From: Gemmatimonadales bacterium
GTDB lineage: Bacteria; Gemmatimonadota; Gemmatimonadetes; Gemmatimonadales; GWC2-71-9
Length of the DNA stretch: 40,889 nucleotides
Assembly: GCA_036506575.1 (NCBI GenBank)
Contig: DASXRM010000030.1
Span: 1-40,889, forward strand
Direction: 5' to 3'
Below, in pieces: positions 14,854 through 40,889 of the stretch (position 1 is its first letter; each line of letters begins with the position of its first letter). Below the pieces are notes generated by a model. It saw nothing but the letters and a program-made list of their open reading frames with translations. It was not told the origin of the DNA and made no database searches. The position numbers and the translations under genes were made by a program.

Positions 14854-15617
14854 GCGGCGGACTGGTGGTCCGGTTGAAGGCATCGCTCCAGCAGCGGGCC
14901 GATTTCTCGGAGGTGCTGGCGGGACCGTGGACCACGCTCTCGGCTCGGGAGCTGGCACAGCGTCCCATCTACCTCGAGCGTGATGGCCGCGTCCCGCTCG
15001 GCGACCTCTTCGAGGTCCGGGGTGAGCCCAATGGCAGAGTCCACTTCGCGGGCGACCTCGAGCGGGTGGATCGTCTCGGTGCCGGGTTGAGTCAGGGAGA
15101 CGTAATCGTCGAGGGGAGTGTGGGCAGCGAGGCTGGGGTCGGGATGGCGGGCGGATCATTGGATATCGATGGCGATGCCGGCTCGCGCGCCGGCGCCGCT
15201 CCGCTGGGCTTCAAACGAGGCATGACCGGTGGTGAGCTGATCGTACGCGGCTCGACGGGGGCCGAGGCTGGGGCTGCCATGCGTCGAGGTCTTCTGGTCA
15301 TCCAGCGGAGCGCCGGTAGCCGGACCGGGCTCGGCATGATCGCGGGTAACGTGATCGTGTTGGGGGCGGCCGGGCCTGAGACCGGACTCTGGTCGAAGCG
15401 CGGGTCGGTCGTAGCTCTGGGACGGATCATACCGCCCGCGACCTACTCCTACGCCTGCACCTACCAGCCGATTCACCTGCGCCTGATGCTGACGCGCCTG
15501 CGGGTGCGGTATGGCCTGCCAATTCATCGGCGGCACCTGACGGGACTCTACCGCCGCTACAGTGGCGATCTCGCCGAGTTGGGCAAGGGAGAGATTTTGC
15601 AATGGACAGCCAAATGA
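14850..15617 (+). CDS. fhcC: Formyltransferase/hydrolase complex subunit C (FwdC-like, GXGXG repeat domain)
   Basis: Repeated 'VEGSVGSEAGVGMAGGSLDIDGDAGSRAG...IVRGSTGAEAGAAMRRGLLVIQRSAGSRTGLGMIAGNVIVLG'. GTGA overlap with fhcD. Confidence 0.88.
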   Translation: MSGGLVVRLKASLQQRADFSEVLAGPWTTLSARELAQRPIYLERDGRVPLGDLFEVRGEPNGRVHFAGDLERVDRLGAGLSQGDVIVEGSVGSEAGVGMAGGSLDIDGDAGSRAGAAPLGFKRGMTGGELIVRGSTGAEAGAAMRRGLLVIQRSAGSRTGLGMIAGNVIVLGAAGPETGLWSKRGSVVALGRIIPPATYSYACTYQPIHLRLMLTRLRVRYGLPIHRRHLTGLYRRYSGDLAELGKGEILQWTAK

Positions 15618-16594
15618 CAGCAGTCGAGACGCAAGTGGCATCTCTCAGAATGAACGAGGCCGCAAGCGAGATCGCGGATGGGATGGCGGATCAGGCCGAC
15701 CTGCTTCGGATTCGAAGTTACCGGCTGCCCGGTGGTGCCCGGGTCATCGATGCCGGCGTTGAGGTCGATGGGGGCATCGAAGCCGGGCTCGCGCTCTCGG
15801 AGATCTGCCTGGGTGGACTGGGGAACGTGACCACCACGCCGGTCCAGGTTGCCGGGGAGTCGTACCCTGGCCTGATGGTCTGGACCGATCACCCAGCGGT
15901 AGCGTGCATGGCCTCCCAGTACGCCGGCTGGGCAATCTCGGTGGGGAAGTTTTTTGCCATGGGCTCGGGTCCCTTGCGGGCCCATGCGCGGGTGGAGCGG
16001 GAGCTGTTTGAGAAGTTGGGGTATGAGGAGCGGGCTGAGGAGGCGGTGCTCGTGCTGGAGGGCCGTACCCTACCGACCGATGAAGTGGCAGCCTGGGTGG
16101 CCGAGAAAGCGCGGCTCCAACCGGTTCAGCTCACCTTTGTGGTAGCACCCACCGCAAGCCTCGCGGGTGGCGTCCAGATTTCGGCCCGGATCATCGAAAC
16201 CGGCCTTCACAAAATGGAGACACTGGGCTTCGACGTGCGCCGGGTGGTGAGCGCGATCGGCACCGCCCCGTTGGCGCCGGTGGCCAAGAACGACCTCAGG
16301 GCAATCGGGCGGACCAACGACTGCATCCTCTATGGCGGACAGGCACGGTTTACCGTGCGGGCCGCCGACGCCGAGCTGGAAAAACTCGCGGCCCAGGTGC
16401 CGGCCTCGGCCTCGCGAGACTACGGCACGCCGTTCTACGAGATCTTTCAGCGCTACCAAGGGGACTTCTATAAGATCGATCCGCTGCTGTTCAGTCCCGC
16501 CGAGGTCTGGCTCACCAGCACCGAGACCGGACGAACTTTTCACGCCGGCCGCTTGAACCCCGAGGTCCTGGCGGCCTCGCTCTACAACCTTTGA
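15614..16594 (+). CDS. mch: Methenyl-H4MPT cyclohydrolase
   Basis: 'LPGGARVIDAGVEVDGGIEAGLALSEICLGGLG', 'CMASQYAGWAI' and 'AMGSGPLRA' are Mch-like. ATG 15614 overlaps the fhcC stop (ATGA); 15602 is the alternative. Confidence 0.9.
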   Translation: MTAVETQVASLRMNEAASEIADGMADQADLLRIRSYRLPGGARVIDAGVEVDGGIEAGLALSEICLGGLGNVTTTPVQVAGESYPGLMVWTDHPAVACMASQYAGWAISVGKFFAMGSGPLRAHARVERELFEKLGYEERAEEAVLVLEGRTLPTDEVAAWVAEKARLQPVQLTFVVAPTASLAGGVQISARIIETGLHKMETLGFDVRRVVSAIGTAPLAPVAKNDLRAIGRTNDCILYGGQARFTVRAADAELEKLAAQVPASASRDYGTPFYEIFQRYQGDFYKIDPLLFSPAEVWLTSTETGRTFHAGRLNPEVLAASLYNL

Positions 16595-32819: not shown

Positions 32820-32848
32820 TTGACAGTTCATTTTTCAGGGTGTATACT
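32820..32848 (+). promoter_or_regulatory. Near-consensus sigma70 promoter immediately after the mptG stop
   Basis: TTGACA (32820-32825), 17 nt spacer, TATACT (32843-32848). It lies ~655 nt upstream of the xoxF ATG. Confidence 0.55.
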
Positions 32849-33505: not shown

Positions 33506-35323
33506 ATGAACCGTTTTGCGCAGAAGGTAGTGTCTGGCGGGCTCGCCGCGGGGCTTTCGGTAGCCGTGGCGTTGTCGGCCAGCGCCCAACAGGCACGGTC
33601 AGGGGCATGGACCCTGAATGCGCCCGAGGGCGAATGGCACATGACCGGTCGTGATTACAGCCTGCAGCGGTTCAGCCCGCTCAAGCAGATCACGACGTCG
33701 AACGTGGCCGAGCTCCGGCCCGTCTGGTCGTTCTCGACCGGGACGCTTCGGGGGCACGAGGGCAACCCGCTCGTCATCGGCAACGTGATGTACGTGCACA
33801 CGTCCTTCCCCAACATCGTGTACGCGCTCGACCTCTCCAAGCCCGGCGCGCCGATGATCTGGAAGCACGTGCCCAACCAGTCGCCCGACGCGATTCCTAT
33901 CGCCTGTTGCGACCTGGTGAACCGGGGCACGGCGTATCACCCGAGCGGCAAGATCTTCATTCAGTTGCTCCAGGGTGAGCTGCTCGCGCTCGATGCCAAG
34001 ACCGGTAAGGAGCTGTGGAAGGTGAAGAATGCCGACTACAAGCAGGGCTCCACGATGACCAACGCCCCGATCGTGATCAAGGACATCGTCATCGCCGGCA
34101 TTTCGGGTGGTGAGTTCGGGGTCCGCGGCCGGGTGACGGCGTACAACGTGAACGACGGGAAAGAAGTCTGGCGCGGCTATAGCACCGGGCCGGACAGCGA
34201 AGTCCTCCTCGAGGGCGACGCCAACCCGAATTATCCGTCCCACCGGGGCAAGGACCTTGGGGTCTCGACCTGGCAGGGCGACGAATGGAAGCGGGGCGGC
34301 GGCACCACCTGGGGCTGGTACTCCTACGACCCCGAGCTGAACCTCTTCTATTACAGCACCGGGAACCCGGGCACCTGGAATCCTGACCAGCGGCCGGGCG
34401 ACAACAAGTGGTCCATGACCATCTTCGCCCGCAATCCGGACAACGGGAAGGTGAAGTGGGCCTACCAGATGACGCCCCACGATGAGTGGGACTACGATGG
34501 CGTCAACGAGAACGTCCTGTTCGAGCAGGGCGGGAAGAAGCTGTTGGCGCACTTCGACCGGAACGGCTTCGGCTATACCCTCGACCGGACCACCGGCAAG
34601 GTCCTCGTCGCCCAGCCCTATGGTCCAGTCAATTGGGCCAAGCGGGTTGACCTGACGACCGGCGTGCCGGAAAAGGATCCGAAGTACGGCACCACCTCGA
34701 AGAAGAACACCGAGGGCATCTGCCCGGCGGCGATCGGCTTCAAGGATCAGCAGCCGGCGGCCTACTCGCCGCAGACTGGCCTCTTCTACGTCCCGGCAAA
34801 CCACATCTGCATGGACTATGAGGGCGTCGAGGTGAAGTACACCGCTGGTCAGCCGTACGTCGGCGCGATCGTGCGGATGTTCCCGGGCCCGGGCGGGCAC
34901 CGGGGCAACTTCATCGCCTGGGACCCGATGAAGGGCAAGGCGGTGTGGTCGAACAAGGAGAACCTCGCGGCCTACGGCGGGGCGCTCACCACGGCGGGCG
35001 GACTGGTCTTCTACGGCACCATGGAAGGCTGGCTCAAGGCGCTTGACCAGAAGACCGGCAAGAGCCTGTGGCAGTTCAAGACCCCGTCGGGCATCATCGG
35101 CAACCCGATGACCTACAACGGTCCCGATGGCCAGCAGTACGTGGCCGTGCTCTCGGGCATCGGTGGTTGGGCCGGTATCGGCGTGGCCGCCGGCATCGGC
35201 GCCGAAGATCCCACTGCCGGTCTGGGCGCGCTGGGCGCGTTCGGCGACGCGGGGAACTTCAGCAACCAGGGTGGCGTCTTGACCGTCTTCGGGCTCAAGA
35301 ACCCGAGCACGGGAAAGATGTAG
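33506..35323 (+). CDS. xoxF: PQQ-dependent methanol/alcohol dehydrogenase, XoxF (lanthanide) type
   Basis: Signal peptide MNRFAQKVVSGGLAAGLSVAVALSASAQQ. Vicinal Cys 'IACCDLVNRG' (33905-33910). 'HDEWDYDGVNE' carries the D-Y-D signature (34490-34498) where Ca-MxaF has an Ala in place of the second Asp. Eight-bladed W-rich propeller sequence. GAGG lies 6 nt before ATG 33506; track start 33317 is rejected. Confidence 0.92.
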   Translation: MNRFAQKVVSGGLAAGLSVAVALSASAQQARSGAWTLNAPEGEWHMTGRDYSLQRFSPLKQITTSNVAELRPVWSFSTGTLRGHEGNPLVIGNVMYVHTSFPNIVYALDLSKPGAPMIWKHVPNQSPDAIPIACCDLVNRGTAYHPSGKIFIQLLQGELLALDAKTGKELWKVKNADYKQGSTMTNAPIVIKDIVIAGISGGEFGVRGRVTAYNVNDGKEVWRGYSTGPDSEVLLEGDANPNYPSHRGKDLGVSTWQGDEWKRGGGTTWGWYSYDPELNLFYYSTGNPGTWNPDQRPGDNKWSMTIFARNPDNGKVKWAYQMTPHDEWDYDGVNENVLFEQGGKKLLAHFDRNGFGYTLDRTTGKVLVAQPYGPVNWAKRVDLTTGVPEKDPKYGTTSKKNTEGICPAAIGFKDQQPAAYSPQTGLFYVPANHICMDYEGVEVKYTAGQPYVGAIVRMFPGPGGHRGNFIAWDPMKGKAVWSNKENLAAYGGALTTAGGLVFYGTMEGWLKALDQKTGKSLWQFKTPSGIIGNPMTYNGPDGQQYVAVLSGIGGWAGIGVAAGIGAEDPTAGLGALGAFGDAGNFSNQGGVLTVFGLKNPSTGKM

Positions 35324-35386: not shown

Positions 35387-35430
35387 GAGAGCGGCGTCGG
35401 GGTGCGGTTCGCTCCGGCGCCGTCTCTTTT
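35387..35430 (+). terminator. Possible attenuator/terminator between xoxF and xoxJ
   Basis: Stem GAGA(G)CGGCG (35387-35396) / CGCCGTCTC (35418-35426) with one bulge and a 21-nt loop, followed by TTTT (35427-35430). Confidence 0.35.
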
Positions 35431-35493: not shown

Positions 35494-36420
35494 ATGCTAC
35501 GGGATTTCAGACATCTGTATCGCGGCCCCGCCCTGGCGGGTCTGGCGACGCTGGCGCTGGCGATGCCGGCGCGAGCCCAGCGTCCGGCGCCCTTGCAGCC
35601 GGGGATCCTCCGGGTGTGTGCCGACGCGGACAACCTGCCCTTCTCCAACCAGAAGGGCGAGGGCTACGAGAACAAGATCGCCGAGCTGATCGCCAAGTCT
35701 TGGGACTCGAAACTCGAATACGTGTGGTGGCCGATTCGCCGGGGCTATTTCCGCGTGTTGAACGGCATGTATTGCGACGTCATAATCGAATCGCCCGCGG
35801 GGCTCGACATGGCAGGCTCCACCAAGCCGTACTACCGGTCAGGCTACATGTTCGTGAGCCGGAAAGGCAGCGGCCTCGAGGACATCAACTCGCTCGCCGA
35901 CCCCCGGCTCAAGAAGCTTAGGATCGGGGTCAATCTGTTCGTCTCCTCCGACGGCGAGCACTCCCCGCCGGAGATGGCTCTCAGCAGATACGGCGTGGTC
36001 GGCAACCTTAAGGGCTATGACACCTCATATGACGAAAACATTCGGCCCGAAGACATCATCAACGGAGTCGCGAAGAAGGACGTGGATCTGGCGATCGTAT
36101 GGGGCCCGATGGCCGGCTACTTCGTGAACAAGTCGCCGGTGCCGCTGGTGCTCACGCCGATCGCCGCCGAGGTGGACTCGGCAAGCGGCTATCCCATGCA
36201 GTACAACATCGGTATGGCCGTGCGACGTCGGGACCGCGCGCTCAGCGACAGCCTTAATACCCTGATCGACCGCAAGCGCCCCGAGATCCAGTCCATACTC
36301 AAGGAGTACGGCGTTCCCCTCCTCCCCATCCTGCCGGAGGCGGGTGAGGGCGACAAAGCCAAGGTGACGGCACCCACGAAACCCACGCCTGCTGACTCGG
36401 GACGCCCGGCCAAGCGTTAG
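35494..36420 (+). CDS. xoxJ: XoxJ/MxaJ-type periplasmic substrate-binding-like protein associated with quinoprotein dehydrogenases
   Basis: Signal 'LAGLATLALAMPARAQ'. 'LRVCADADNLPFSN', 'YENKIAELIA' and 'YYRSGYMFV' show the family-3 SBP fold typical of MoxJ-like proteins. Position directly after xoxF. Confidence 0.82.
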   Translation: MLRDFRHLYRGPALAGLATLALAMPARAQRPAPLQPGILRVCADADNLPFSNQKGEGYENKIAELIAKSWDSKLEYVWWPIRRGYFRVLNGMYCDVIIESPAGLDMAGSTKPYYRSGYMFVSRKGSGLEDINSLADPRLKKLRIGVNLFVSSDGEHSPPEMALSRYGVVGNLKGYDTSYDENIRPEDIINGVAKKDVDLAIVWGPMAGYFVNKSPVPLVLTPIAAEVDSASGYPMQYNIGMAVRRRDRALSDSLNTLIDRKRPEIQSILKEYGVPLLPILPEAGEGDKAKVTAPTKPTPADSGRPAKR

Positions 36421-36482
36421 CCGCGCCCAGGTCGCCTCGGCCATTGCCACTCAGTCAGGTTAGAGAGGATCCCTTCCCGAGC

Positions 36483-36899
36483 ATGGACAGGACTATGCGA
36501 GGTGTTTCCGTCATCCTGGGGCTCTGCGTAATCAGCTCCAAGCTTACGGCGCAGCAGCTCCGGGATCAGTATCACCAGGCTCCCCGAGACACGGTGTCGC
36601 AGGAGGTCTACGATGGCTGGAAGCAGTTCAATCTCAACTGCGCACGATGTCACGGAGAGGACGTCCAGGGGACGACCATCGCCCCCCATCTGATCCTTTC
36701 CCTCAAGCCTGACGGTCCGATCAACACCAAGGAGCTTTTCATTCAGACGGTGTGCGCCGGGCGGCCCGCCAAGGGCATGCCTTCCTGGTGCGCCTTGGGA
36801 GTGGAACTGCCGACCATCGAGAAGATCTACACGTACGTGAAGGGCCGCAGTGATGCCAAAATCGGCCCCGGCCGGCCGGCGGTGAAACCGGGTACCTAG
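36483..36899 (+). CDS. xoxG: Mono-haem c-type cytochrome (XoxG/cytochrome cL-like electron acceptor)
   Basis: Signal 'MRGVSVILGLCVISSKLTAQQ' and a single haem motif 'CARCH'. Position after xoxJ. Start is 36483, 36495 or 36444, so uncertain. Confidence 0.75.
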   Translation: MDRTMRGVSVILGLCVISSKLTAQQLRDQYHQAPRDTVSQEVYDGWKQFNLNCARCHGEDVQGTTIAPHLILSLKPDGPINTKELFIQTVCAGRPAKGMPSWCALGVELPTIEKIYTYVKGRSDAKIGPGRPAVKPGT

Positions 36900-36900
36900 C

Positions 36901-38184
36901 ATGGTCTCTCACCTGGCCTTCGCCCCCGTGCTCTGCCTGTTCGCTGCGATCACGCCTTACCCGACCGCTCCGGTCCGGGTATCGCAATCCCGGGAGCCCC
37001 TCGCGTTGTTCCCGGTGGCGTTCTACGGGAAAGGCGCCAATTCCCTGGAGCAACGGGACCCCCTGGTCGCGGCCATGACCGATGGCATCCTGCGATCAGA
37101 GCTCGAGCGGTCGGGGAGGTTCGAGTTGATGAATCCCGCGCGGCTGGCCAAAGCGCTCGCGGACACCGAGGCGGGTGGTATAGAGTGCGTCACGCTGGAG
37201 TGCCGGCGGACGCTGAGCAGGAAGTTGGGAGCGGCTTGGATGGTGACCGCCAAGCTGAGCAAGACCAGCAATCTGATCTGGTACCTCTCCGGACAACTGA
37301 CTGATGTCGCTACCGGACGCCGTCTTCTCGATGACGAATTCGAGTTGAAGGGCATTGCGGAAGACATTGCCAAGGGCGGCGCCCACTCGCTCGCGAGGCG
37401 GATCACTAACGCCGCAACGACCGTTGTCACGGTGGACACGCCGATCACCAAGATGAATCTGGCGCAGCTGAAGTCGAAGCTGGCTGCAGCGACCGGCGAT
37501 AACCCTCCTGATCTGAGCAAGGTGGACCTGAGCGGCCTCGACCTGAGCGGCGTCGACTTCAAGCGGGCGAATCTCACCGGGGCCCGCCTGGTCGGCACCA
37601 AGCTCGTCGGGGCCAACCTGTTCACTGTCGATCTTACCGACGCGGTGCTGTCCGATGCTGATCTGTCCCGGGCCAACCTCGACGGAAGCATCCTTCGGCG
37701 AGCCAACTTCCAGCGGGCCAACCTCGAGGGTGCCAGCCTCTTTGCTACCATTATCGAATCGGCCGACCTCACCAGCGCCAACTTGGCCGGCGCTCGAATC
37801 ATCGGCTACCTGCGCGGAGCCAAGCTGGGGGGTGCCAGCCTCCGCCACGCCAATGCGGGGGCCGATCCCGGAAATCAATCCATGGGTGTCATGCGAGCCA
37901 CCTTCGTGGGCGCCGATCTGAGTGGGGCAGATCTGTCCGATGCCAACCTTTTCAAGGCGGACCTGTCGCACGCCAATCTCACCAACGCGAAGCTGGCTCG
38001 CGCCAATCTGATGAACGCAGACCTGATTCAGGCTGACTTGACCCGGGCGGACCTTACCGGGGCCAAGCTGGCCAAGGCCAACATTGACGATGCCATCTTT
38101 ACTCACGCCGTCGGGGTGGATCGTATTCAGGGGCTCGATCAGGTTCGCAATCGCGAAAGGGCGATCTTCGATGCTTCCAAATGA
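36901..38184 (+). CDS. Exported fusion protein: LpoB/TolB-N/CsgG-like small domain + long pentapeptide-repeat (A(D/N)LXX) domain
   Basis: Hydrophobic N-terminus 'LAFAPVLCLFAAI'. The N-domain runs 'LALFPVAFYG...LVAAMTDGILRSELERSGRFELMNPARLAKAL...KLGAAWMVTAKLSKTSNLIWYLSGQLTDVATGRRL'. It is followed by ~40 pentapeptide units such as 'ANLTGARLVGTKLVGANLFTVDLTDAVLSDADLSRANLDGSILRRANFQRANLEGASL...'. The ATG is 1 nt after the xoxG stop. Confidence 0.8.
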   Translation: MVSHLAFAPVLCLFAAITPYPTAPVRVSQSREPLALFPVAFYGKGANSLEQRDPLVAAMTDGILRSELERSGRFELMNPARLAKALADTEAGGIECVTLECRRTLSRKLGAAWMVTAKLSKTSNLIWYLSGQLTDVATGRRLLDDEFELKGIAEDIAKGGAHSLARRITNAATTVVTVDTPITKMNLAQLKSKLAAATGDNPPDLSKVDLSGLDLSGVDFKRANLTGARLVGTKLVGANLFTVDLTDAVLSDADLSRANLDGSILRRANFQRANLEGASLFATIIESADLTSANLAGARIIGYLRGAKLGGASLRHANAGADPGNQSMGVMRATFVGADLSGADLSDANLFKADLSHANLTNAKLARANLMNADLIQADLTRADLTGAKLAKANIDDAIFTHAVGVDRIQGLDQVRNRERAIFDASK

Positions 38185-38301
38185 CATTGGCGAAGTCGAT
38201 GTCATCCTGAGACCCTGCCCCGAGCACAGCGAGGGGGAGCGTAGCACCCGAAGGATCCCTCAACCGGGAACGGAGAGGTTCTTCGCGCTCAGAATGACAT
38301 T
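38181..38301. repeat. Nested palindromic (REP-like) intergenic element of the GTCATYCTGAG...CTCAGAATGAC type
   Basis: Outer pair GTCATCCTGAG (38201-38211) / CTCAGAATGAC (38288-38298). Inner pair CGAAGGATCCCTC (38249-38261) / GAGAGGTTCTTCG (38273-38285), 10/13 complementary. Extra hairpin ATGACAT (38181-38187) / ATGTCAT (38199-38205). The left half carries a 37-nt insertion. Confidence 0.8.
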
Positions 38302-39373
38302 CCTAACGATCACGATTCTCCTTGCCTCCGCCTGCGGGAAGGAGCGGCCCTCCCTCGGCGGGCGGGCGGATACCGCCGCTCCCTCGACGGCGCCCGCGGC
38401 TGCCTCTTCCGGTGAGCTGGCCTACGTCACCAACGAAGACTCCCAGGAGTTGAGCGTCATCGACACCCGGACGGACAGTCTGATCGCGACTATTCCGGTG
38501 GGTACCCGCCCGCGGGGCGTCAAGGTGAGCCCGGATGGCCGCACCGTGTATGTCGCTCTCAGCGGATCGCCCAAATGCCCGCCGAGCATGCCCGACGAGG
38601 AGTGCGAAAAGCTGAAGGCCGATAAGAGCAAGGACGGAATCGCCGAGGTCGACGTCCGCGCCCGCCGGGTCCGGCGGGTGCTGCCGGGCGGCTCCGACCC
38701 GGAGCAGTTCGATATCTCGCGCGACGGCATGCGACTGTACATCTCGAACGAAGATGCCGGAACGGCCTCACTGGTCGACGTGAAGAGTGGAACCATCGAT
38801 ACCACGGTTCGGGTGGGAGCGGAGCCGGAGGGTGTGCGCCTCAGCCCCGATGGGAAGCTGGTCTACGTCACGGCTGAGAGCGACACCTCGATTAGAGTGC
38901 TGGACGCGGCGACCGGTCGAGTCAACGCCCGGATAAAGGTGGATCGCCGTCCCCGCGATGTGGCGTTCACTCCGGACGGCAAGCTCGCGTATGCTACCGC
39001 GGAGGTGGGGGGGAGTGTGTCCGTCATCGATGTGGCCGGCAACCGCGTGATCGCCAGGATTCAGCTCCCCCCGGATGCGAAGCCGATGGGAGTGCGGGTT
39101 TCCCCCGATGGCAAGCGGGTGTACGTGGCTACCGGTCGGGGAGGCACCGTCGTGGTGATCGATCCTGCCACGAACAAGGTCGTCGGGTCGGTCAAAGTGG
39201 GACAGCGCCCCTGGGGTATCGCGCTGACGAGCGATGGGAAGAAGCTCTATACCGCTAACGGGCCGTCCAACGATGTGACCGTCGTCGACACCGACAAGCT
39301 CCAGGCGATCAAGACGATCCCGGTCGGAAAGATCCCCTGGGGAGTAGCGATCGGACCAGCACCAGGCTCGTGA
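38294..39373 (+). CDS. YVTN-repeat beta-propeller lipoprotein (PQQ-dependent catabolism-associated beta-propeller type)
   Basis: 'MTFLTITILLASAC' is a probable lipoprotein signal. Repeated 'P(R/E)GV(K/R)(V/L)SPDG(R/K)xVYV(A/T)' blades and 'YVTNEDSQELSVID'. Track start 38084 overlaps the upstream gene and is rejected. Confidence 0.8.
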   Translation: MTFLTITILLASACGKERPSLGGRADTAAPSTAPAAASSGELAYVTNEDSQELSVIDTRTDSLIATIPVGTRPRGVKVSPDGRTVYVALSGSPKCPPSMPDEECEKLKADKSKDGIAEVDVRARRVRRVLPGGSDPEQFDISRDGMRLYISNEDAGTASLVDVKSGTIDTTVRVGAEPEGVRLSPDGKLVYVTAESDTSIRVLDAATGRVNARIKVDRRPRDVAFTPDGKLAYATAEVGGSVSVIDVAGNRVIARIQLPPDAKPMGVRVSPDGKRVYVATGRGGTVVVIDPATNKVVGSVKVGQRPWGIALTSDGKKLYTANGPSNDVTVVDTDKLQAIKTIPVGKIPWGVAIGPAPGS

Positions 39374-39383
39374 GGCAACAGTC

Positions 39384-39884
39384 ATGAACGTCCGACCACC
39401 CTGGCTGGCTGCGGCGGCGTTGCCGCTGCTCCTGGCCGCCGACGCTTCGGGGCCGGTTCCCAGCACCTTTCAGTTCGACGCCGATGCCCGGCCCGAGCTT
39501 CATCGACTCTGGGACGTCAGCTCGGCGGCAAAGGCCGAGCGGGTCGCCTGTCTGGCGGCTACGATCGAGGGCGATACCGTCCGAATCTCGCGCGTGCTCC
39601 CACTCGAGCCGGGCCGGGCGGACTCGCTAGGCATATCGGCGGGTGCCTCGCTCGACAGTTGCGGCCCACCTGAGTGGCTGGGCACCGTGCACACTCACGT
39701 GGCGCTTCGAGACGGTCAGCGGCCCTACTCTCTGTTCTCGGGAGCCGATCGAGGGGTCATGATGCTGTGGTGGAGACGCTGGAAGGTCGACGGGATCTTC
39801 TGCTTGCTTTACAGCGGGGAGGAAGTGATCTGCGAGATCGAGGGACCGGGCGGTGCCGTGCTCTTCCCCCGCTCGCACTACTGA
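39384..39884 (+). CDS. Exported JAMM/MPN+-like metalloprotein, paralog 1
   Basis: Signal 'WLAAAALPLLLAADA'. 'ERVACLAATIEGDTVRISRV' (E-x-x-C/G-x-L), 'GTVHTH' (HxH) and 'FSGADR' (S-x-x-D). Four Cys conserved with paralog 2. Starts 10 nt after the propeller gene. Confidence 0.6.
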   Translation: MNVRPPWLAAAALPLLLAADASGPVPSTFQFDADARPELHRLWDVSSAAKAERVACLAATIEGDTVRISRVLPLEPGRADSLGISAGASLDSCGPPEWLGTVHTHVALRDGQRPYSLFSGADRGVMMLWWRRWKVDGIFCLLYSGEEVICEIEGPGGAVLFPRSHY

Positions 39885-39889
39885 CCGGC

Positions 39890-40402
39890 ATGAGACCGTC
39901 GGCTATCCTTGGTCTTCTGCTCGTCGCGGCTTCCGCCGCACCGCTGGCAGCACAGAGCGAAGGCGGCCGCCCCCGAGCAGCCTTTCGCTTCAGCGCTGAA
40001 GCAGGTACCGCGCTCCGCGAGCTATGGCAAACGAGCGTCGCCGCCAAGGAGGAGCGAGTGGCCTGTCTGGCAAGCACGATCCGGAACGACACCGTTTTCG
40101 TCACCCGAATCGCGGCGCTGGAGCCGGAGGACGCGGACTCGATGGGAATTTCCGCCACCGGCTCGGTGGACCGGTGCGGACCTCCCGCCTGGTCGGGTAC
40201 GGTTCACACCCACATCGCGCTCTACACCGACGACCTGCCCTCCACCAGGTTTTCCGCTCAAGATCGGACGGCAATGCGGCTGTGGTACGATCGCTGGCAC
40301 GCCGATGGCGTCTTCTGCCTGATCTACAGCAGGCACGACGCCCATTGTGAGGCCGATGGGGTGGTTGGTGGGATGCGGGCAACGCCCAGGATTGTTCGCT
40401 AG
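39890..40402 (+). CDS. Exported JAMM/MPN+-like metalloprotein, paralog 2
   Basis: Signal 'MRPSAILGLLLVAASAAPLAAQS'. 'ERVACLASTIRNDTVFVTRI', 'GTVHTH' and 'FSAQDR'. About half the residues are identical to paralog 1 by eye. ATG 39890 lies 5 nt after paralog 1; track start 39674 overlaps it and is rejected. Confidence 0.6.
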   Translation: MRPSAILGLLLVAASAAPLAAQSEGGRPRAAFRFSAEAGTALRELWQTSVAAKEERVACLASTIRNDTVFVTRIAALEPEDADSMGISATGSVDRCGPPAWSGTVHTHIALYTDDLPSTRFSAQDRTAMRLWYDRWHADGVFCLIYSRHDAHCEADGVVGGMRATPRIVR

Positions 40403-40458: not shown

Positions 40459-40889
40459 TCATCGTACCACGACGGTCGCCTTCATGAACGGGTGCAGCGT
40501 GCAGTGATAGCTGTAGGTGCCAGCACGGTCGAAGGTGTGGCGCCAGACTCCGTCAGAATTGATCACCCCGGAATCAAAGCTGTTGTCGTCACCGGTCACT
40601 GTGTGGGGGACTTGATCTTGATTGCTCCACGCGATCGTGGCGCCGGTGGCGACTTCCAGCTTGGAGTCCGTATACGCCATGCTGCGGATCACTGTTGGCA
40701 CTAGTCTCTCCTCGTTGGACGGCCTGGGAGGTGCTGCTCTCGGACGAGGTGCGCGTCGTCCAAAGTAACGCGCCAGCGTGAACGGAACGGTGAACTCGAA
40801 GCCATAGCGCACTTGGTCGCCGCCCCGGGAGGAGCCCTCGAGCGTCGCGGTGTTGGTATTTGATGCTTGGAGAGAAAAGGTGTGGGGGG
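40459..40889 (-). CDS. Cupredoxin (plastocyanin/amicyanin-like blue-copper) domain protein; reading frame stays open to the window end
   Basis: C-terminal domain 'LEVATGATIAWSNQDQVPHTVTG...GTYSYHCTLHPFMKATVVV' has the His...Cys-x2-His-x2-Met copper ligands. Possible starts are GTG 40812 or ATG 40680, but the same frame continues without a stop to 40889 ('...TFSLQASNTNTATLEGSSRGGDQVRYGFEFTVPFTLARYF'), so the N-terminus may lie outside the window. Confidence 0.65.
   Translation of the reverse strand, partial: PHTFSLQASNTNTATLEGSSRGGDQVRYGFEFTVPFTLARYFGRRAPRPRAAPPRPSNEERLVPTVIRSMAYTDSKLEVATGATIAWSNQDQVPHTVTGDDNSFDSGVINSDGVWRHTFDRAGTYSYHCTLHPFMKATVVVR

Follow-up and report, generated by a model that had tools for sequence, protein, structure and literature searches.

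A conserved tandem pair of predicted exported JAB/MPN+-like proteins at the end of the xox methanol dehydrogenase operon of Gemmatimonadales

The window analyzed here is a stretch of 40,889 nucleotides from a Gemmatimonadales bacterium (contig DASXRM010000030.1 of assembly GCA_036506575.1), and the subject is two adjoining genes, paralog 1 and paralog 2, that stand last in an operon encoding a XoxF-type methanol dehydrogenase (Table 1). They had been described, from the letters of the window, as a tandem pair of secreted JAMM/MPN+-like proteins. The tandem arrangement is plain: 5 nt lie between the stop codon of paralog 1 and the ATG of paralog 2, and the two products are 54% identical over 136 residues (E=2e-50). 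The third codon position is the richest in G+C in both plus-strand frames (GC3 of 0.78 and 0.74); the overlapping minus-strand open reading frames (ORFs) lack this signature and were rejected as genes, while a listed 242-aa ORF with a GTG start at 39674 is an upstream extension of paralog 2 that overlaps paralog 1. A GAGG sequence lies about 9 nt 5' of the paralog 1 start, and translation of paralog 2 is probably coupled to that of paralog 1. Median ratios of nonsynonymous to synonymous substitution (dN/dS), calculated from the orthologs of 74-82 loci, are 0.20 for paralog 1 and 0.15 for paralog 2, both inside the range of the neighboring genes (0.11-0.23), and both paralogs are under purifying selection.

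That the two proteins have the MPN/JAB fold is well supported by their predicted structures; the support is structural and does not come from sequence statistics. The paralogs were modelled separately with AlphaFold2, each with its own alignment, yielding a predicted local distance difference test score (pLDDT) of 77.8 and a predicted template modelling score (pTM) of 0.73 for paralog 1 (76 sequences), and 76.6 and 0.70 for paralog 2 (80 sequences). For each model, the top 50 Foldseek matches in the PDB were MPN/JAMM proteins only, including Rpn11, Rpn8, CSN5, CSN6, eIF3h, Mov34, BRCC36, and a Caldiarchaeum Rpn11 homolog, with Citrobacter BubCD among the matches of paralog 1 only. These matches had a probability of 1.00, E values of about 1e-5 to 3e-4, and query-normalized TM-scores (TMq) of 0.41-0.57, the normalization running over the entire precursor including the signal peptide (~25 unstructured N-terminal residues). 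The structure searches thus place both paralogs in the MPN/JAB group, as the original prediction had proposed, and not in an unrelated fold. Among the viral models of BFVD, the best matches of paralog 1 were JAB/MPN phage proteins, named 'JAB domain-containing protein' and 'MPN family protein'. By DSSP, the model of paralog 1 comprises a strand (28-31), a helix (35-49), a hairpin (54-62/65-73), a helix (86-92), a strand (100-104), a helix (120-133), and a second hairpin (137-142/147-154), and that of paralog 2 has the same order of elements. In both models this is the order of the JAB core, which consists of helix 1, the strand 1-2 hairpin, helix 2, strand 3, helix 3, and the strand 4-5 hairpin, with a sheet order of 2-1-3-4-5 and a pocket that is a narrow cleft (Iyer et al., 2011). 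The canonical JAMM sites also occupy their expected places in both models, with the Glu before core strand 1, HxH ending strand 3, and SxxD opening helix 3; read from these motif positions along the modelled secondary structure, the residues would form a His2Asp metal site.

Both paralogs carry the motif 'ERVACLA', then 'HTH', and then 'FSGADR' (paralog 1) or 'FSAQDR' (paralog 2), so that the ordered E, HTH, and SxxD elements noted earlier are present in each, and they are conserved across the family. In a family alignment (A2) of 53 full-length representatives reaching down to 24% identity, E52, C56, C93, H103, H105, D122, C140, and C150 of paralog 1 are invariant in 53/53, and S119, P96, G100, T104, W129, and F139 are conserved at 90% or more; of the five motif residues, therefore, E, H, H, and D never vary and S varies little. 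The second His and the Ser are separated by exactly 13 residues in both window proteins, so neither has the HxH-x7-SxxD spacing that is canonical for the JAMM superfamily. This spacing, which had been singled out as a feature of the pair, holds for the two proteins and for 239/240 close homologs but is no fixed trait of the family: it ranges from 7 to 27 among the representatives, with 12-13 in most, and one representative, P0326 (HTHINGNENFSTSD), shows the canonical spacing. What looks like an expanded motif is thus a loop of variable length, with no motif lost. In the paralog 1 model this loop is the least confident internal segment (mean pLDDT of 72 for block 101-110 and 62 for block 111-120).

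Export of both proteins by the Sec pathway is likely, judging from their N-termini. Each combines a hydrophobic core with a basic residue and an AxA-like site, and neither contains a twin-arginine motif. The signal peptides reported for the pair are matched by a hydrophobic, signal-like N-terminal segment in 273/288 full-length homologs. Across the family these signal-like N-termini lack RR, and distant members have lipobox-like N-termini (e.g., LVAC). The four conserved cysteines, likewise part of the first description, occupy aligned positions in the two paralogs. In paralog 1, C140 and C150 fall on strands 4 and 5, which are antiparallel neighbors in the JAB sheet order, C93 ends helix 2, and the side chain of C56 (strand 1) should be on the same face as E52. 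The four residues most likely form two periplasmic disulfides, whose pairing is suggested by the modelled topology: a C56-C93 bond would hold helix 2 against strand 1 next to the active site, and a C140-C150 bond would bridge the strand 4/5 hairpin. A thiol-disulfide oxidoreductase was considered and ruled out, there being no CxxC.

The position of the pair at the end of a xox operon, also part of the first description, proved to be conserved in about 160 loci. In the window the order is xoxF, a xoxJ-like gene, a gene for a c-type cytochrome, a DUF3280 and pentapeptide-repeat gene, a beta-propeller gene, paralog 1, and paralog 2. Among 83 Gemmatimonadales loci (L001-L083), every locus that is long enough shows the order RFAP synthase-XoxF-XoxJ-XoxG-DUF3280/pentapeptide-beta-propeller-paralog 1-paralog 2, except that paralog 2 was undetected in L062, L072, and L073 despite the presence of downstream sequence. 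About 80 further metagenome loci, found in a scan seeded with intermediate relatives (45-57% identity), also have the xox cluster. Two architectures contain a single-copy relative: in one, XoxF-XoxJ-XoxG-DUF3280/pentapeptide-JAB, the RFAP synthase gene is convergent and the beta-propeller gene is absent; the other reads XoxF-J-G-DUF3280-(second cytochrome)-beta-propeller-JAB. One single-copy relative comes from a Gemmatimonadaceae metagenome-assembled genome (MAG). The DUF3280/pentapeptide gene occurs in every JAB-bearing xox cluster whose sequence covers that stretch. By their conserved co-location and co-orientation with xoxF, xoxJ, and xoxG in divergent genomes, the pair can be classed, on an operational definition, as accessory genes of the xox operon.

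Table 1. Positions in the window of the gene pair, its predicted functional residues, and the neighboring xox operon features.
Feature	Position	Strand	Remarks
Paralog 1	39384..39884	+	ATG start, 166 aa; predicted exported JAB/MPN+-like protein
Paralog 1, predicted Sec signal peptide	39384..39446	+	MNVRPPWLAAAALPLLLAADA, followed by S; cleavage site inferred from AxA rule (AADA/S)
Paralog 1, E52, putative catalytic Glu	39537..39539	+	Invariant; two residues ahead of core strand 1 (model strand 54-62)
Paralog 1, H103-T-H105, putative metal ligands	39690..39698	+	Both His invariant; end of core strand 3 (model strand 100-104)
Paralog 1, 13-residue loop from HxH to Ser	39699..39737	+	VALRDGQRPYSLF; variable insertion, lower model confidence
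Paralog 1, S119-G-A-D122, SxxD	39738..39749	+	D invariant, S at least 90%; N-terminus of helix 3 (120-133)
Paralog 1, invariant Cys C56, C93, C140, C150	39549..39551, 39660-39662, 39801-39803, 39831-39833	+
Paralog 2	39890..40402	+	ATG start, 170 aa; predicted exported JAB/MPN+-like protein
Paralog 2, predicted Sec signal peptide	39890..39952	+	MRPSAILGLLLVAASAAPLAA, followed by Q; cleavage site approximate (PLAA/Q)
Paralog 2, E55, putative catalytic Glu	40052..40054	+	Invariant; two residues ahead of model strand 57-65
Paralog 2, H106-T-H108	40205..40213	+	Invariant; end of model strand 103-107
Paralog 2, S122-A-Q-D125	40253..40264	+	Invariant in alignment A5; helix 123-136
Paralog 2, invariant Cys C59, C96, C143, C153	40064..40066, 40175-40177, 40316-40318, 40346-40348	+
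Sigma-70-like promoter candidate 5' of xoxF	32820..32848	+	11/12 consensus matches; consensus match only
xoxF, PQQ methanol/ethanol-family dehydrogenase	33506..35323	+	TIGR03075, 695 bits; Pfam PQQ
14-bp hairpin (10 GC) and T-tract between xoxF and xoxJ	35391..35423	+	68 nt past xoxF stop
xoxJ-like (MoxJ-like) periplasmic binding protein	35494..36420	+	TIGR03871, 268 bits
xoxG-like c-type cytochrome	36444..36899	+	Cytochrome_CBB3/Cytochrom_C and TIGR03874-like matches under curated cut-offs
DUF3280 and pentapeptide-repeat protein	36901..38184	+	Pfam
PQQ-dependent-catabolism-associated YVTN beta-propeller	38294..39373	+	TIGR03866, E=3e-81, 272.8 bits (curated cut-off 287.3)

XoxF of the window has the lanthanide-type DYD motif (DEWDYDG) and a vicinal Cys-Cys (ACCD); translation probably begins at M64 of the listed ORF, ahead of a signal peptide. 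The likely start of the beta-propeller protein is MTFLTITILLASAC, which is lipobox-like. The hairpin that follows xoxF could, from its sequence, be an intra-operon attenuator or messenger RNA (mRNA) stabilizer that raises XoxF over the products of the downstream genes. Upstream of the operon, window positions 8759-32819 hold a tetrahydromethanopterin (H4MPT)-linked C1 island, with DUF1464, ATP-grasp and RimK-like ligases, an FhcA-like amidohydrolase, EthD-domain, CitG-like, hydantoinase-A-like, DUF6513/pterin-binding, PabB-like, and GATase proteins, DUF447, beta-RFAP synthase, and the methenyl-H4MPT cyclohydrolase MCH (15602-16594). Directly 3' of paralog 2 lies a convergent gene for an amicyanin/plastocyanin-like cupredoxin (40459-40812, minus strand), which was not detected beside the pair in other loci, where DoxD, YceI, and S9 peptidase genes are found instead. 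Some variation is also seen within the cluster. In some Gemmatimonadales, a gene for a CMAS/S-adenosylmethionine (SAM)-dependent methyltransferase stands between the beta-propeller gene and paralog 1 (L002, 8809-10023; L003, 2890-4050), and gaps similar to those of L002 and L003 occur at this point in L008, L010, and L013. Five loci (L062, L135, L136, L138, and L143) have a second XoxG-like cytochrome gene between the DUF3280/pentapeptide and beta-propeller genes, together with a single JAB-like gene.

Searches returned about 880 homologs of paralog 1 (E<=1e-3) and about 1090 of paralog 2 at the 90% cluster level, all unnamed or 'hypothetical' and drawn from soil metagenomes and Gemmatimonadales MAGs. 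The family is small and narrow, for its profile recovers no more than 127 proteins, a good number of which are fragments, among 1.84 billion 50%-identity representatives, and an alignment of distant members used as the query returned only 5. When a single genome of each GTDB species was scanned, 115 relatives were obtained, nearly all from Gemmatimonadales/Gemmatimonadota MAGs, and the family members with known taxonomy are Gemmatimonadota. Two loci labelled otherwise, L010 (Chloroflexota) and L055 (Acidimicrobiaceae), are short contigs with the same synteny and 74-80% identity to paralog 1, and are probably mis-binned Gemmatimonadales contigs rather than signs of a wider distribution. In five proteins (P0272, P0321, P0334, P0362, and P0367), the C-terminus of the beta-propeller (…LYTANGPSNDV…IPVGKIPWG…) runs into JAB-like sequence with garbled stretches; these 'fusions' look like frameshifted or mis-called metagenome genes and, joining as they do the beta-propeller end to JAB-like sequence, incidentally confirm the adjacency of the two genes. 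The most divergent members, P0368 and P0365, are the only ones found off xox clusters, and both are encoded on phage-like contigs bearing such hallmarks as RNA ligase, helicase, HNH, DNA polymerase A, D5-type primase, and integrase. P0368 (25-30% identity) has a lipobox-like LVAC and keeps the E, HxH, S..D, and four Cys residues, while P0365 is a marginal relative without the two C-terminal Cys. No match to P0368 was obtained by tblastn in INPHARED phages or in a scan of IMG/VR viral contigs. The genes of divergent relatives were located among replication genes (L084, 9145-9597; L086, 10001-10417).

Sequence profiles do not recognize the pair as structure comparison does. The Pfam JAB and Prok-JAB profiles had been suggested as a check of the first description; the window proteins had no significant match to the curated JAB profiles (Pfam JAB, Prok-JAB, and RadC), and no PHROGs match at E<=0.01 was obtained for either; since no Pfam, NCBIfam, or PHROG model matches, the family is undescribed. 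Among the 53 relatives, P0295 alone matches Prok-JAB (E=0.005, 17.1 bits against a cutoff of 25), over the stretch from HxH to SxxD, and P0352 matches DUF4329, the Tox-JAB-2 family (E=0.065). In all, eight Pfam families match the 53 relatives at E<=10, of which these two belong to the JAB superfamily. Sequence searches of the PDB, whether run with a single protein or with the profile of the family, hit only glycogenin and, by way of an 'RLW..RW..FCL' stretch, PH domains; these weak matches were discarded as spurious.

In predicted fold and topology, and in the ordered E...HxH...SxxD at canonical structural positions, the family resembles JAMM/MPN+ and prokaryotic JAB proteins (PF01398, PF14464; Rpn11, CSN5, BRCC36, AMSH, archaeal Rpn11-like proteins, and the Mec+/QbsD-type enzymes that process ubiquitin-like proteins). 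It shares the small single-domain size of the prokaryotic JABs, and its occurrence as a pair recalls the MPN heterodimers Rpn11/Rpn8 and CSN5/CSN6. It differs from JAMM/MPN+ proteins in having no significant profile match, a spacing of 13 (7-27 across the family) instead of 7, an E-x-x-x-C motif, four invariant Cys, and a signal peptide that predicts a periplasmic location; moreover, the catalytic residues are retained in both paralogs (MPN+/MPN+), and the context is a methanol dehydrogenase operon. Unlike the prokaryotic peptidase-type JABs, it has no ubiquitin-like partner gene. The accessory proteins of XoxF and MxaF offer a second comparison (XoxJ/MxaJ, XoxG/MxaG, MxaACKL/MxaRS, lanmodulin, LanPepSY, and the Haft beta-propeller/ABC set associated with pyrroloquinoline quinone, PQQ). 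Like these, the pair is operon-encoded, predicted to be periplasmic, conserved with the dehydrogenase, and presumably needed for its assembly or function, but it is homologous to none of them. In the literature searched, no link of JAMM/MPN proteins with methanol dehydrogenase, xoxF, or lanthanides was found, nor any JAB-fold protein as a xox or mxa accessory; a study of XoxF gene clusters in Gemmatimonadetes describes only other conserved hypothetical proteins, of 110-130 aa.

The reading that we favor, with moderate confidence, is that the pair represents a Sec-exported, undescribed JAB/MPN+ family whose members in Gemmatimonadota serve the XoxF system as metal-dependent hydrolases. We infer export, metal identity, disulfides, hydrolase activity, dimerization, and substrate along the following lines. 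H103 and H105 at the end of core strand 3, together with the Asp at the start of helix 3, would bind a metal, most likely Zn2+; the Glu just before core strand 1 would act as general base, and the Ser of SxxD would complete the site. The enlarged, variable loop that joins HxH to SxxD may form a lid over the substrate cleft or contribute to its shape. We expect the proteins to hydrolyze a periplasmic substrate with an extended peptide, isopeptide, or amide, perhaps so as to process or mature a periplasmic component encoded in the operon. The Gemmatimonadales pair may act as an MPN+/MPN+ heterodimer analogous to Rpn11/Rpn8 and CSN5/CSN6. The original prediction had offered either a novel periplasmic metallopeptidase or a Zn- or lanthanide-binding protein; the modelled JAMM fold and the motif are in keeping with the former, whereas coordination chemistry makes it unlikely that a His2Asp site holds a lanthanide. 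Two other assignments of the site were rejected, a lanthanide-binding site because it is His-rich rather than carboxylate-rich, and a cytidine-deaminase-type site because there is no H/CxE...PCxxC.

Several observations weigh against this proposal. The TM-scores of about 0.5 are moderate, with root-mean-square deviations of 5-9 Å, and the loop between HxH and Ser exceeds the canonical length by 6 residues and is modelled with low confidence. Neither window protein has a Pfam or NCBIfam match at E<=10. An hhalign comparison of the family profile with human PSMD14, whose query sequence was checked and is essentially identical to the PDB PSMD14 chains, was not significant (probability 0.65%), with only the hairpin and HxH aligned, albeit in a consistent motif order. 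Comparison of the family alignment with a phage Tox-JAB-2 alignment (A6, 7 sequences found via ORF24 of Xanthomonas phage OP1) was not significant either (5.6% probability, E=0.007), with the motifs aligned in the right order. Finally, no beta-grasp or ubiquitin-like family occurs among the conserved neighbors (XoxF, XoxJ, XoxG, DUF3280/pentapeptide, and beta-propeller), nor is any other obvious JAMM substrate found there.

A more specific version of the proposal, which we put forward tentatively and regard as possible but doubtful, is that these are the first periplasmic JAMM enzymes, forming a disulfide-stabilized MPN+/MPN+ heterodimer (a homodimer in single-copy lineages) that acts in the maturation of XoxF. 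Here a hitherto unknown proteolytic, isopeptidolytic, or amidolytic step would serve to assemble or regulate the lanthanide-dependent enzyme of soil Gemmatimonadota. Possible targets are a co-operonic lipoprotein (the DUF3280/pentapeptide protein or the beta-propeller), the GVVGG tail of paralog 2, and a lanthanide or PQQ carrier. Residues 153-170 of paralog 2 (40346-40402) form a tail that is conserved in its orthologs as CEADGVVGG(M/L)R-x3-5-V(R), of which the VVGGM segment (residues 158-162) has a pLDDT <50. Among the operon partners no conserved C-terminal GG was found, so that the sole conserved GG is in this tail. A flexible Gly-Gly tail near a JAMM-type site recalls JAMM substrates by analogy, but it is a lead only, because a G-x-x-G is common to both paralogs and may be a simple turn.

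The hydrolase proposal has to be weighed first against a non-catalytic role, in which the MPN fold would serve as a scaffold or metal-binding module: a Zn or Cu buffer, a chaperone for the assembly of XoxF, XoxG, or PQQ, or an adaptor between proteins, with the cysteines perhaps forming a second metal site. Many MPN proteins are scaffolds, including Rpn8, CSN6, and eIF3h, which are among the top structural matches; no candidate substrate is encoded nearby, the conserved C-terminal tails suggest interaction surfaces, and four invariant Cys could in principle bind metal. Scaffolds of the MPN- type, however, characteristically lose E/HxH/SxxD, while here all of these residues are (nearly) invariant in the two paralogs and throughout their relatives, a pattern indicative of selection on catalysis. 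Thiolate metal sites made by Cys are uncommon in the oxidizing periplasm, and lanthanides prefer carboxylate-rich coordination over His2Asp. On balance, we consider a purely non-catalytic pair unlikely.

Less probable again, and in our judgment quite improbable, is a periplasmic amidohydrolase acting on a small molecule, whose target would be an amide or ester in a formaldehyde adduct, a compound related to PQQ, or a metallophore (lanthanophore), and which would thereby release or recycle cofactor or metal for XoxF. The strict linkage of the pair to XoxF, which needs delivery of Ln3+ and PQQ in the periplasm, would fit such a role, as would the lack of an evident protein substrate, and the enlarged variable loop could make a small-molecule pocket. 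The deaminase-like fold has been proposed to be ancestrally a binder of nucleotide-like small molecules, with a narrow cleft (Iyer et al., 2011). Yet no metallophore biosynthesis or TonB-receptor genes were found among the conserved neighbors in the examined loci, and the idea is pure inference; we know of no JAB enzyme that hydrolyzes amides or esters of the metallophore or PQQ type.

It is very improbable that the pair belongs with the secreted toxin and phage JABs (Tox-JAB-2/DUF4329; PF14220), as a conflict effector, nuclease, or phage-derived factor that lies beside the xox genes by chance. Tox-JAB-2 is a divergent JAB clade and the nearest secreted one so far described. Its proteins are secreted, whereas the other prokaryotic JABs are intracellular (Zhang et al., 2012), and the family shares with them and with ORF24 of phage OP1 the H[ST]H signature, a secreted or lipoprotein-like N-terminus, a length of about 120-170 aa, and a Cys near the catalytic Glu with a further conserved Cys before HxH. 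One relative weakly matches DUF4329, and the most divergent relatives are those on phage-like contigs. The phage Tox-JAB-2 proteins, however, have E-V-C-G (Cys at +2 and not +4) and near-canonical spacing, and are without the Ser and the two C-terminal Cys. As a control, OP1 ORF24 matches DUF4329 with E=6e-5, whereas the window proteins do not match; OP1 ORF24 (L167, 20486-20857, minus strand) and its relatives lie next to tail genes, have invariant E-V-C-G, second Cys, HTH, and D, and are themselves below the Pfam DUF4329 gathering threshold (23.3 against 28.6 bits). Tox-JAB-2 proteins occur in toxin or phage tail regions, in contrast to stand-alone genes in a conserved metabolic operon, and the loci of the pair show neither RHS or other toxin-delivery domains nor an immunity gene. 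Assignment to Tox-JAB-2 was ruled out, the profile comparison being non-significant and the toxin context absent. Furthermore, collinear synteny persists while the xox genes diverge in parallel with the pair, which is consistent with vertical inheritance, the purifying selection resembles that on the xox genes, and a periplasmic nuclease makes little sense in a xox operon.

That the JAMM resemblance is spurious altogether, a coincidence of motif order joined to wrong models of an unrelated fold, is hardly credible: profile support is not significant, model confidence is moderate, the modelling alignments are shallow in diversity, and TM-scores are near 0.5, but the independently modelled paralogs give the same exclusive MPN lists in the PDB (with JAB/MPN matches in BFVD for paralog 1), the five motif residues sit conserved on the expected secondary-structure elements, and JAB families make up 2/8 of the Pfam families matched.

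The pair thus represents a new family of the known JAB/MPN+ superfamily, one whose predicted compartment and functional context are both new. JAB/JAMM enzymes are classically cytoplasmic or nuclear isopeptidases tied to ubiquitin-like tails. An exported JAMM family with the full catalytic set, fixed in a metabolic operon, would widen the biochemical range of the fold, and exported, operon-bound JAMMs would imply a class of substrate so far unconsidered for these enzymes. The JAMM-like pair, predicted to be exported, is probably a functional part of the methanol-oxidation system of soil, where the XoxF of Gemmatimonadetes was the single most abundant protein in a grassland metaproteome (Butterfield et al., 2016). 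Genes without annotation that are always found with this XoxF are good candidates for missing steps in its assembly or regulation, and the pair provides concrete candidates for lanthanide-assembly factors of XoxF outside the Proteobacteria.

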